This document shows positions 24,501 to 61,845 of a DNA stretch of 64,000 nt, in pieces; position 1 is the first letter of the stretch, and each line of letters opens with the position of its first letter. The DNA comes from Octopus vulgaris (lineage: Eukaryota): contig OX597828.1 in NCBI GenBank assembly GCA_951406725.2, forward strand, positions 28,954,001-29,018,000, written 5' to 3'. A model generated the notes under the pieces. The model did not search any database. It was given only the letters and a program-made list of their open reading frames with translations, and was not told the origin of the DNA. Made by a program: the position numbers and the translations under genes.

Positions 24501-27500
24501 AGGGTGCACGTGTCTGTGGAGTGCTCAGCCACTTACACGTTAATTTCACGAGCAGGCTGTTCCGTTGATTCGGATCAACCGGAACCCTCATCGTCGTAAC
24601 CGACGGTGTGCTTCCATCCATAGCTATACCTGTCGTTGATATGAATAAATCTGTTCCACATGTATGTGCACAATAAACAGCGAGTATCAAAACGATGACT
24701 TTCATTATTCATTCTTAATACGTTCAAGCTGATTCTAACGCATTTCTGCTAATCGCTGTTATATTGGAGATTTGCATTGTATCGTTGTATGATTGAAGAA
24801 AAACATCTCCTTTCAGACGAATGCCCGTTCATAATACACTTGATTCATTAGCACAAAGGGACTTCAGAACATATTCACGTTAAGAGCTACCGGAACCTAT
24901 TAACAATGAATATGAAAGTTATCTTTTTCGATTCTCACTGTTCACTGTGTATATGACGGTTTATTATTGGTTGGCAGATAACTAACACGCATCAGCAAAT
25001 AATGTCTTTGCTGAATGTATAAACAAAAGCCACAAACACTTGTTAGATTTATTGGTTTGAGATAGCTTTGATTGAAGAGGCACAAAGATGCCGAAGAACC
25101 GGGTGTCCCAAAGTTCCTTTATTATTACTGTTATTATTATAATAATTATTATTATTATTATCATTGTTGTTGTTGTTGTTGTTGTTGTTAACATTATTAT
25201 TAGTATTATTAGTATTATTATTAATAATATTTTAATATCATTATTATTATTTAGGGCGGCGAGCTGGCACGCCGGGCGAAATGCTTAGCGGTATTTCGTC
25301 TGTCGTTACGTTGTGAGTTCAAATTCCGCCGAGGTCGACTTTGCCTTTCATCCTTTCGGGGTTGATAAATTAAGTACCAGATACGCACTGGGGTCGATGT
25401 AATCGACTTAATACCTATGTCTGTCCTTGTTTGTCCCCTCTATGTTTAGCCCATGTGGGTAGTAAAGAAATAGGTATTTCGTCTGTCGCTACGTTCTGAC
25501 TTCAAATTCCGCTGAGGTCGACTTTGCCGTTCAACCTTTCGGGGTCGATAAATTAAGTACCAGTCAAGTACTGAGATCGATATAATCGATTGTACCCCTT
25601 CCCACAAAATTCCATGCCTTGTGCTCATAGTAGAAAGGATTATTATTATTATTATTATTATGATTATTATTATTATTACTATTGTTGTTGTTGTTATTTA
25701 CTTACTTTGAGGATCGTTTTCCAACTGACCACAAATAAATGTAGAACCGTCAAGCCGACCTGCTGCCCGTTCAGTTTACTTAGCAAAAGCAGCATCTGTA
25801 GAAGGAAAATGAGAGGAAATTTATAAAGATGAAGGCCTGGATCCATCGACTCAGGATGAAGAAGGCTTTGGATGAGAAATGTTGTGCAATATATTTAATC
25901 GGTTTTTTTTTGTTTTTTTATTTATGAGTTTTGACTTCTTTGCTAATTTGTTGATCTCTGAATGCTTTTGGCTCTTCTGAATTTCGTCGGAGAAAATTAA
26001 TGTGAAGGTAAAACAGTTTGAGCGATGCTTTGTCGCTTTTGCCAATCCAACATTTTTGCCTTATCAGATCTCTCTCTCTCTCTCTTTCTCTCTCTCTCTT
26101 TCTCTCTCTCTCTTTCTCTCTCTCTTTCTCTCTCTCTCTTTCTCTCTCTCTCTCTCTCTCTCTCTCTCTCTCACACACACACACACACACACACATATAC
26201 ACTCTTTCTCTCTCCTTTCCTTACCTTTTTCTTTCTCTCTCTCTCGTTCGTACCTTCACTCTTTGTCTCTGACCCACTCTGTCTGTCTGTCTGTCTGTCG
26301 GTCTTTCTCTCTCTCTTTCACACACACACACACACGCACACACACACACACACACGCACACGCACACGCACACACGCACACACACACACACACACTCACA
26401 CAAAACAGTTCATAATGTCTAAATGATCAAGTGTGCGCGTGAGCCACTAAACCTTTGCCAGTCCGAAACATTTTCATAAATTTATTCTTATATCCATTCT
26501 TGTTTTAACCTTTCTTTTACAAGTTCTGAATACCATAACGCTTTCCTTGCATAAGTTCCTGACGCATGGACGCCAGGGAAATACTTGCAAGGTACCACAT
26601 GCGATACACACGACTGACAAAGGGCTAACGAATACGAAACAACATTCAACTGGCCAACGCAAATACGTACATAGAGTCATCATTGTTCAACTGCAGGAAT
26701 ACTCAACCACAATCTGCCCCCATTCAATGTAGATTTTTTTAATCAACTCTGATTTTGTTGTCTAGGATTTGTAAAGATCATTGGCAGGATTTGAACTCAG
26801 AACTCAAACTAACATCGCAAGCTTCACCGTCCGACGCTCTAATGATTTAACTACGCCAGTACTCTGTGTTGGTACATTACTTATCGGCACCAAAGGTTGA
26901 AATGCAAAGTTGAACTCAGGAAATTACAACTTAGAACACAGTGTCGGAATAAATACAGCAGATTACTTCATCCGGCATGTAAATACATATACTAAGCTCT
27001 CTATTTTTTAACGCGTCAAGTCATGGGTAGAAGGGGATCCCTTATAATTCTGTATTGTTTTTCAGTATCTTCATGAGTCGCCTGAATATGCGGAATATAG
27101 AGTGAACTCTACTAAATGCACTGTGTGTCACTTAGTTACTTTAAACCGGATGACGGATTAAAACTGTTGCCCAAGAACCCAAAATAAAAAAAAAGAAAGA
27201 AAATAAAACAGGAATAAAAAGTTAAAAATGAAAATACCAAAGGGATTTCCCTCAACGATCTAACGATTCCGTTCACTAAATTTATCAATACCGAAATAAT
27301 GAAAGCTAAAGCTAAGCTCGGCGTGATTTGAACGCACGGGGCAGAACAAGAACCGTAAAGAATTTCGTCCTACGCTTTAACGAGTCTGCCAATACGCCAT
27401 TTCAGTGATACACATTTTTCCATACAATTGACTCATTTAATGTTTTTCACTTATTAGCCCTGCATCCGTCTACTCATTTTTTTTTTCTTGTGCTCTGTTT

Positions 27501-59900: not shown

Positions 59901-61845
59901 CTATATGCAAATAATCAACCTACTCTTGTTAACAATCTTTTTATGTCGTCCGACCACAAACGTCTTTGGCAGCCTCTTGCTCCCTTCTCCCCTACACTTT
60001 CAGTCAGGATAGTCCTGGGCAGTGAGTTGTGGTGCATTGTATGTACAAATTCTGATAGCTTTGAGGATTTGAATCTTGGACTTTCAGATTTTCTACCGCA
60101 GCCACATTTGTTATCCTGTCTTTTCTTCTAATTTATTTTGCCCGATCTGCAAATAGGCTTCTATCTTTTCCTCTATAACTGTGTACATTGTCCAAGCTTC
60201 TGTCCCGTAGAGGAAAATTGGCATTAGATGTCAGTTTACTCGCCTCTGTTTTTGGTGAAGTTTTATGCCTTTTGAGAGGAAGATCTTTTTCGTTCTTATA
60301 ACTATTTTTTTTTTTGGCCTTAATTATAAGATATTGTCTTCGAAAAGTTCGGATATAATGATCAATATAGTCCCTGATATACGAAAAAAAATATACAGGA
60401 TAGTTACATCTGGAACGCCTTTTGATTATAGGAAAATTTAATCAGGACAGACTAAACAACTAATTGTACTGAACAAAATGTAGTCCCAAATGCAATGTAT
60501 TTTTTTTTTTTTTTTATTACAGTGATTCCTTACTTCTCAGTAGCAGAGTAATTAATGAGCGGAAGAAGTACGTTCTTGCAAATAGTCTTTACTAAATTAC
60601 TTATTGTCACACATTCTATTAACTGGGGGGGGGGGGATGAAAGGCAAAGTTAGTTCTGCTGAGGATTGGCATCGGAATTCATAAAAATACCTATCGGCCG
60701 CAGAAACCCGTGTTATAATGAGGAGGCCGCGATATAAATTTACATGTGTTAGCCAGAAAAATCTGAGGGCGTGATAGGTGAACCGCGATGAGAGAATTTG
60801 ACTTCGTGGGAAAATGAAACAAAATACCTGTAAAGCATCTAGCCTGGTGCTGAAACTGTTTCTGTTGCTTCGTTAAATTCTAGAAGGTGGGGAATTGGCG
60901 GTGGCCATACAGCGTTGGAAAGAATGCCTTGTTGTATTTATTCCGATCCTCTGCGATTTGAGTTCAAAGCCTGGGGGGGAGAAATTTACTTTTTATATTT
61001 TCAGATGCCATAACTCCCATCCAAGTACTAACGGCAACAATAACAAAGGTGTTAGGGGTGATGTGGTCGCAGAAATTGTCTGACAGCCATGACTGGGTTT
61101 TCCTGCTTGTGTGGCATGGTGTAGAGTCTTGTTGCCAGACATAGGGTCTTCCAGCAGCCAACCTCTTAACCCAGGGCAGCACTGCCTCCTCCAGGCACTT
61201 GCTGTAGGCCTACGTTTTGAGTCAGAGAACGTGTGGGAATCTGAATGGAGGCATAACGTTGCCATCATTAGTGATCACTCGAAACACCGTGACGTTAACT
61301 GGATGTAAAGTGATCAACAAAGGGTTATTCATATCGCAAACCCACCAATCATTGCTATAGACGTGACGAGAAAGAAAGAAAGAAAATTCCTTCTAGGTGG
61401 ATTCTTTCAGCATTTTTCCCCCCAGAAAAATTGTATTGGTTTGGTCTGAAGAAAGGGACTGAGTGTCCATCGCCCTTGCGGGACCGATGAAAGCAGAGAG
61501 ATCTACACAGTTAACATTTCACTAACGGTTGTTAGTCTGTTGGGGAAAAAGGAAAAAGAAAAAACAAGGGCAAGAAAGGAATTCTAAAGGGCCACCATCT
61601 TAAGGAAACACACCTCTTGTTCGTTAGTAATTATGCTGCTGTATGTTAGTATTGAACCTACCGACTTTCTTTATTGATATCGCTTAAATTAACACATACT
61701 TTATTATTATTACTAAACCTTCATTGAGTATTTTTTTTCATAATCTTCTTTCTAGTTACTGATGTTTGTGAACCAGTTGTCCGGTCCTGATATTGGTTTG
61801 TCTGCATGTGATATAATAGTCATAACACGGCAAACTTTGCTAACC
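49884..61845 (+). CDS. Gene B: gustatory receptor-like protein, 3' partial (401 aa in window); join(49884..50927,58952..59020,61756..61845), last exon outside the window
   Basis: Seen: hydrophobic 348-codon exon ([13 protein letters not shown] near the N-terminus); GT-AG phase-0 junctions; spliced frame [51 protein letters not shown]|. Exon sizes are identical to gene A. The family call is inferred from similarity to gene A. Confidence 0.87.
51010..51645 (-). mobile_element. 5'-truncated R4/Dong-like non-LTR element (Zn knuckle plus RLE) inside (TAA)n
   Basis: Minus strand reads [87 protein letters not shown]; (TAA)/(ATT) repeats on both sides. Confidence 0.88.
52333..53393. mobile_element. 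AT-rich foldback element with about 200-250-bp inverted arms; left arm split by a SINE
   Basis: 52333-52545 plus 52963-53000 is the reverse complement of about 53182-53393 (catgcatacgatcgtttcgaatggtaatattaacatgt / acatgttaatattaccattcgaaacgatcgtatgcatg). Confidence 0.7.
52546..52960 (+). mobile_element. Full-length family-2 SINE (tRNA head, CORE-like cttgggcaagt, internal microsatellite, (AAAGAGT)-like tail)
   Basis: tggctgtgtggtaag A box, gggttcagtccc B box, tail aaagagtaaaagagtaaagagag. Confidence 0.88.
53427..53805. repeat. Palindromic repeat with a perfect 116-bp hairpin; related half copy at about 16340-16495
   Basis: Perfect arms 53513-53570 and 53571-53628, plus an extra tandem arm 53427-53512. 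Confidence 0.85.
56455..57075 (+). mobile_element. Tandem family-1 SINE copies
   Basis: Head and core units repeated; each copy ends gccttgtgccaagagt.gaaaa. Confidence 0.85.
57340..58700 (+). mobile_element. Highly decayed L1/Tx1-like LINE fragment, related to 17470-20155
   Basis: [31 protein letters not shown] and aagctatctctgaaag are similar to the other copy. Confidence 0.65.
58952..59020 (+). CDS. Gene B exon 2 (69 nt, [23 protein letters not shown])
   Basis: Acceptor ttttttcccctttcag, donor GAG|gtgaga; homologous to gene A exon 2. Confidence 0.88.
59190..59575 (-). mobile_element. Family-2 SINE
   Basis: gactgcggccatgctggggcaccgcc...ccaaggtgccgcacagtggg..gaac matches family 2 in reverse. 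Confidence 0.78.
59930..60330 (-). mobile_element. Decayed RTE-like LINE fragment
   Basis: Minus strand reads [23 protein letters not shown], resembling the post-RT LYGxEAWT motif. Confidence 0.5.
61045..61310 (-). mobile_element. Tc1/mariner-superfamily transposase fragment
   Basis: [50 protein letters not shown], matching the QQDxAPxH catalytic-Asp motif. Confidence 0.8.
61756..61845 (+). CDS. Gene B exon 3 (90 nt, [30 protein letters not shown])
   Basis: Acceptor taatcttctttctag, donor ACC|gtaagt; homologous to gene A exon 3. Confidence 0.9.

Follow-up and report, generated by a model that had tools for sequence, protein, structure and literature searches.

The locus examined here raises the question of what two long hydrophobic reading frames, facing away from each other in the genome of Octopus vulgaris, encode, and of what the small exons common to both can tell about their family and origin. 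The frames lie in a stretch of 64,000 nucleotides (hereafter the window; contig OX597828.1 of assembly GCA_951406725.2, positions 28,954,001 to 29,018,000) and belong to two genes arranged head to head, gene A on the minus strand and gene B on the plus strand. The reading favored here, to which we give a probability of about 90%, is that A and B are two intact, divergent octopus genes of the gustatory receptor-like (GRL) family of seven-transmembrane (7TM) ion channels, that both keep the ancestral four-exon layout, and that their products are likely subunits of tetrameric ligand-gated cation channels. The evidence consists of the splice junctions and joined frames, the agreement of the small exons between A and B, the intron register with known gustatory receptors (GRs), and the predicted fold.

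Exon models of genes A and B

The two genes and the space between them are made up of the following features, where nt stands for nucleotides and aa for amino acids:

37039-35966, minus strand: gene A exon 1, 1074 nt and 358 aa, followed by a phase-0 GT donor; predicted helices S1 to most of S6
30374-30306, minus strand: gene A exon 2, 69 nt, phase 0-0; putative end of S6 and last intracellular loop
25795-25706, minus strand: gene A exon 3, 90 nt, phase 0-0; putative S7a, beta hairpin and start of S7b
12588-12502, minus strand: gene A exon 4, TYhhhhhQF motif and stop codon; putative pore helix S7b
49884-50927, plus strand: gene B exon 1, 1044 nt and 348 aa, followed by a phase-0 GT donor
58952-59020, plus strand: gene B exon 2, 69 nt, phase 0-0
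61756-61845, plus strand: gene B exon 3, 90 nt, phase 0-0
61846-64000, plus strand: start of gene B intron 3, which is 7463 nt long and continues past the window end
G000:C15:29023309-29023431 (window-equivalent 69309-69431), plus strand: gene B exon 4, TYhhhhhQF motif and stop codon, 5.3 kb past the window end
37040-49883: interval between the divergent start codons of A and B, 12,844 bases

A preliminary description of this DNA had proposed 69-nt and 90-nt exons common to both paralogues and joined in phase 0, which was borne out by the coordinates, by the AG/GT boundaries and phase 0 of all junctions and by the open frames. Exon 1 is a multiple of three in both genes, and the joined frames remain open for 439 aa in gene A and 441 aa in gene B across introns of 5591, 4510 and 13117 nt in the former and 8024, 2735 and 7463 nt in the latter. 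The gapless alignment that had been described for exon 2 (23 aa) and exon 3 (30 aa) was likewise recovered, with identities of 6/23 and 8/30 and of 11/17 over the first 17 aa of exon 4; for each of exons 2, 3 and 4, the observed A-B score was reached in none of 20,000 shuffles. Moreover, the three junctions of A fall in the same alignment columns as the three of B, and the TYhhhhhQF motif in exon 4 of both genes lies six residues past the last intron. A motif scan of 264 kb gave eight candidate terminal exons, among which the best pyrimidine tract (0.8) was found in exactly A exon 4 and B exon 4. A single first exon was found for each gene in the 264 kb scanned and in genome searches, with no set of alternative first exons sharing a tail, and no further GRL first exon was found in the interval between the two genes.

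Four of the 24 listed runs were aligned on gene A, all of them as contigs and with an RNA label that is a guess for every run; the aligned stretch ends at 37150, and gene A exon 4 and the exon 3-4 junction lie outside it. In run X2, from a related organism about 96-97% alike, a 952-letter contig (record 9) joins gene A exon 1 to exon 3, its letters 170-261 corresponding to 25704-25795 and its letters 332-952 to 35967-36587. The 70 contig letters between these pieces amount to one base more than exon 2, and the depth in the bin with gene A exon 2 was 0.58, as expected if the contig covers this exon, the exon 2 piece itself not being among the matches listed. This contig is probably a spliced RNA spanning gene A exons 1-3. 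Contigs of runs X1, X3 and X4 cover parts of gene A exon 1, and X4 also covers exon 3.

For gene B, exon 1 shared 92% identity with the Octopus bimaculoides protein A0A0L8FSD6 (P0003, 'Gustatory receptor'), and CAI9733792.1 ('gustatory receptor for sugar taste 61a-like') joins gene B exons 2-4 as predicted here, a 22-bp tandem repeat of 17 copies (window 44723-45096) supplying a false N-terminus in place of exon 1. Both represent gene B or its orthologue, carry the GR name already and are wrong in one exon each, and the inclusion of exon 2 in gene B is predicted from homology and from one database model (CAI9733792.1). A named database protein for gene A was not found, the two matches both being without a name.

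Several further observations were made on the introns and the intergenic interval. A broken-up reverse-transcriptase element (RVT_1, E 1.3e-10) lies at window 17467-18907 within gene A intron 3. Very high contig depth was seen at 33320-36021 and 29460-30231 in all four aligned runs, which is consistent with abundant dispersed repeats in gene A introns. Contig 15 of X2 has 581 more letters beyond 37127 that were unplaced and may represent an untranslated 5' exon of gene A, spliced and lying towards gene B. Between the genes, a 288-aa frame (window 40354-41220) is by eye like the C-terminal part of a retroelement-like frame at G000:C8:24418016-24420010, and Pfam returned nothing convincing for it.

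Intron register and exon lengths in the family

The three C-terminal introns had been taken for the ancestral phase-0 set of the family, and this assignment is supported by their register with Drosophila ananassae Gr39a and by a published layout (PMC13388675). Three phase-0 introns are described as general for the GR family (PMC6175461, PMC5203786, PMC9998090) and are also present in GRLs of other animals (PMC6175461, PMC5203786). For the insect 'bitter GR supergroup' and GRLs, the layout comprises a long exon 1, exons of 69-72 bp and 90 bp and a short final exon, each in phase 0 (PMC13388675). This insect and animal GRL layout (PMC13388675; PMC6175461) is matched exactly by A and B (69 and 90); however, the passages of PMC13388675 treat hexapods and GR-like proteins in general and do not name cephalopods, and the octopus introns measure 2.7-13 kb. 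When counted by eye in supplement 3 of PMC2204066, the three phase-0 introns of D. ananassae Gr39a are in register with those of A and B, its common exons are 63 and 90 nt long, and, like A and B, it has six codons between its last intron and TY. Residue 4 of the third exon is Phe in Gr39a (90 nt), in gene B and at a further octopus GRL locus, C8, and Leu in gene A. Drosophila Gr39a (PMC2204066) is thus like A and B in its 90-nt third exon and its intron register, but has a 63-nt exon 2 and several alternative first exons on one tail, whereas A and B have one first exon each.

This third octopus locus shows the same arrangement with one-codon changes in the small exons:

G000:C8:24,447,000-24,551,000, minus strand: C8 locus of the GRL family, in which six alternative first exons precede a single exon 2 and a single exon 3

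A search of the octopus genome with the PF08395 profile gave 26 weak matches, one of which was this locus, and missed both window genes. The C8 locus has a 72-nt exon 2 and an 87-nt exon 3 with junctions in the same alignment columns as those of A and B, and its terminal motif is a variant, SY...FQ instead of TY...QF; a second, diverged copy of the terminal exon follows after 43 kb and is used in O. sinensis isoform models. Within the 200 kb examined, six first exons, three of them in near-identical 6-kb tandem units, share a single exon 2 and a single exon 3, a design like that of Gr39a, in which several first exons are joined to a common tail (PMC2204066). RefSeq isoforms of O. bimaculoides LOC106874590 and O. 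sinensis LOC118764548 likewise have different N-termini and the same tail. The claim of identical exon lengths therefore stood for A and B at 69 and 90 nt but not as an invariant of the family, given the 72/87 nt at C8 and the 63/90 nt in Drosophila Gr39a. A genome search with the 30-aa exon 3 of gene B matched only itself, its first search step being too coarse for a family count.

The spacing of the C-terminal region was followed through the relatives found in a protein search with P0003, which returned 58 proteins, or 56 besides P0003 and P0002. The TM7 motif was present in 38 of these 56, the 18 without it being dropped, and 28 of the 38 had the Ala-His/Lys start of exon 2. From this start to TY there were 59 residues in 21 of the 28 homologues, 58 in two, 60 in four and 61 in one. 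A Gly landmark was present in 37 of the 38 rows, partly by construction, because rows were kept only with the landmark inside a 10-residue window. Among the 13 long C-terminally truncated relatives in a 60-row alignment, 12 break off at junction 1 and have Val as the following residue, which is what read-through into a GT donor would give; in Tachypleus, two isoforms are distinguished by exactly 23 aa where exon 2 would lie. These protein comparisons indicate that a length of 23 + 30 residues is normal for the family, from chelicerates to molluscs, and not peculiar to the A/B pair. The nearest named non-cephalopod relatives are the molluscan and annelid GRLs Lottia gigantea XP_009051427.1, Mactra KAL4225658.1 and Owenia CAH1786854.1, with 24-29% identity to P0003; those of Lottia and Mactra have a C-terminal spacing like that of A and B within one residue, with introns placed from the proteins. 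A and B form a clade of their own with ENA/Logan proteins, apart from these three GRLs.

Predicted fold and proposed function

The assignment to the GR-like 7TM ion channel family, made in the preliminary description, held up on Pfam matches of relatives, on a fold match to Gr64a and Gr43a, and on the intron register. It had also been argued that the introns support this assignment independently of protein similarity; the intron evidence stands, but its independence is partial, since the small exons were themselves recognized by translation. The Pfam 7tm_7 family (PF08395; cut-off 26.6 bits) was passed by the nearest relatives of A (P0001, 34.6 bits; P0002, 35.9 bits) and by the nearest relative of B (P0014, 33.3 bits), and P0016 scored 26.1 bits, under the cut-off. 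A sequence search of the PDB with P0009 returned nothing relevant.

The exon 1 part of the fold was modeled in gene A, and the C-terminal part in the Lottia homologue. The gene A exon 1 model had a predicted local distance difference test score (pLDDT) of 85.7, and all six of its Foldseek matches at E<=0.001 were Drosophila Gr64a/Gr43a, with template modeling (TM) scores of 0.55-0.61. The Lottia model (pLDDT 89.6) placed helices at 328-367, 378-390 and 405-424, its top match being Gr64a (E 6.5e-9). Together, the two models contain the features of the 7TM ion channel fold, namely S1-S7 with S7 split by a beta hairpin, and would imply an intracellular N-terminus for A and B. Drosophila Gr64a and Gr43a and Bombyx Gr9 (PDB 8jme, 8jm9, 8uvu) are like A in the predicted exon 1 fold and in the QF gate motif; however, the sequence identity of Gr64a/Gr43a to gene A exon 1 is just 12-14%, and the ligand is not transferable.

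Previous work has described GRs as tetrameric ligand-gated cation channels in which S7a and the cytosolic part of S4-S6 form the anchor domain, S7b lines the pore, and Q and F constitute the gate (PMC12635824). In the Lottia model, the equivalents of the three junctions fall at 358/359 in the S6 helix, at 380/381 at the start of S7a and at 410/411 in S7b. By this model, intron 1 would interrupt S6 at its cytoplasmic end, intron 2 would fall where S7a begins, and intron 3 would lie in the pore helix S7b, six residues before TY; the anchor region, through which subunits make contact, and the pore would then be the products of exons 2-4. This region may tolerate few insertions or deletions, which likely accounts for the fixed lengths of exons 2 and 3 while exon 1 diverges, and the phase-0 introns would not move. 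If A and B work like GRs of known structure, binding of a small-molecule ligand within S1-S6 would swing the Phe gate of S7b open. Low-level chemosensory or internal sensing is the best guess for the role of A and B.

Origin of the pair and alternative explanations

A retrogene origin of A or B was considered and rejected; retroposition is excluded because both genes keep all three introns, in line with the DNA-level origin that had been proposed. The further proposal that the exon structure itself shows an old duplication was sustained only in its conclusion: equal exon lengths cannot date the event because they are the family default, whereas old age is suggested by a quick tree and by the exon 1 identity of 72/333, or 22%. 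The tree comprised 37 rows picked for long exon 1 coverage, with short C-terminal fragments left out and no bootstrap. It joined A with P0001/P0002 (99) and B with P0003 and P0014 (99), the two groups being sisters beside the Lottia and Mactra proteins, and grouped A and B with gastropod, bivalve and annelid GRLs. These sequence comparisons suggest that the duplication is old and took place within cephalopods. A genomic blastn comparison of A with B revealed no collinear intron similarity; among the matches listed, 15 long ones in mixed order and orientation were read as dispersed repeats. P0002, the orthologue of A, and P0014, the orthologue of B, are each encoded on an ENA contig with a length of 81,305 bases and have identities of 36-39%; they are probably on the same contig, with the A/B linkage kept in a distant relative. 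From these sequences, the pair probably arose by a local DNA duplication with inversion in the cephalopod lineage, before Octopus split from the carrier of P0002/P0014.

Several points weigh against the conclusions drawn for A and B. Neither exon 1 alone matched Pfam 7tm_7 at E<=1, P0003 scored 20.8 bits, under the 26.6 cut-off, and no sequence was matched by P0003 in a PDB sequence search. The bridging evidence for gene A is a single contig with a depth of 3.4 from a related organism, with a guessed RNA label. In A0A0L8FSD6, the model of gene B from O. bimaculoides, exon 1 is followed by exons 3-4 and exon 2 is absent. Furthermore, intron positions outside octopus and Drosophila were derived from protein models, and the A+B clade had a value of 94 in the Shimodaira-Hasegawa-like approximate likelihood ratio test (SH-aLRT), unstarred, in the quick tree without bootstrap.

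Among the alternatives, the small exons might be chance AG..GT stretches and their match an artefact, as the window is rich in microsatellites and candidate exons of these lengths number in the hundreds across the region. This explanation is already refuted and has practically no probability left: the paralogue exon ranked first among the 619 (69 nt) and the 453 (90 nt) open AG..GT candidates in 264 kb, and first among 12,012 AG-start candidates for exon 4, and the spliced contig and database proteins with the same exons argue against it as well. It is also conceivable that exon 2 is a regulated cassette exon, its 69 nt being kept for in-frame skipping, since three database models (O. bimaculoides P0003, Ruditapes P0030 and Tachypleus isoform X2) lack exactly this exon. 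However, gene finders can drop any symmetrical phase-0 exon without a frame break, exon 2 is included in gene A's single bridging contig, its skipping would cost the protein what is predicted to be the last part of S6 along with the connection to S7a, and its length varies from 63 to 72 nt, all of which makes regulated skipping improbable.

The role of the proteins leaves wider room for other explanations than does their architecture. With membership and exon layout as described, A and B may serve a non-chemosensory function, such as development or the sensing of internal nutrients, light or temperature. When the octopus genome was searched with a Lottia GRL, A and B were the only loci below E 0.001, which, with their grouping among gastropod, bivalve and annelid GRLs, is what a conserved function might produce; moreover, NvecGrl1 of Nematostella acts in body patterning (PMC5850775), and Drosophila Gr28b senses light and heat (PMC6175461). 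On the other hand, insect GRs are described mainly as chemoreceptors (PMC12635824), and an exon 1 just 22% alike between A and B is as expected for receptors with different ligands; a non-chemosensory role appears possible but doubtful. A more speculative proposal, which we regard as improbable, is that A and B are the conserved cephalopod descendants of the ancestral lophotrochozoan GRL, held in head-to-head linkage in distant cephalopods through co-expression and co-assembly, and possibly provide a common partner subunit for the alternatively spliced octopus GRL arrays, which evolve fast, comparable to Orco but outside insects. The leads for it are the contig of P0002/P0014, the position of A and B as the sole strong matches of the Lottia GRL, and the long branch of the C8 array.

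In conclusion, the reading of A and B as intact GRL genes with the ancestral four-exon layout adds new, partly mis-annotated members to a known family, whose architecture is already published down to exon sizes. No paper devoted to cephalopod GRLs was found in a literature search outside whose reach most subscription journals lay, and supplements of GRL surveys may already include these proteins. The equal 69/90-nt exons confirm the identity of the genes and are no surprise for the family. The gain lies in accurate gene models, with four exons each, for two GRL genes of octopus; they show directly from DNA that the layout published for insects (exons of 69-72 and 90 bp, phase 0) holds in a cephalopod, and make A and B ready candidates to screen for expression and ligands alongside the chemotactile receptors already known.

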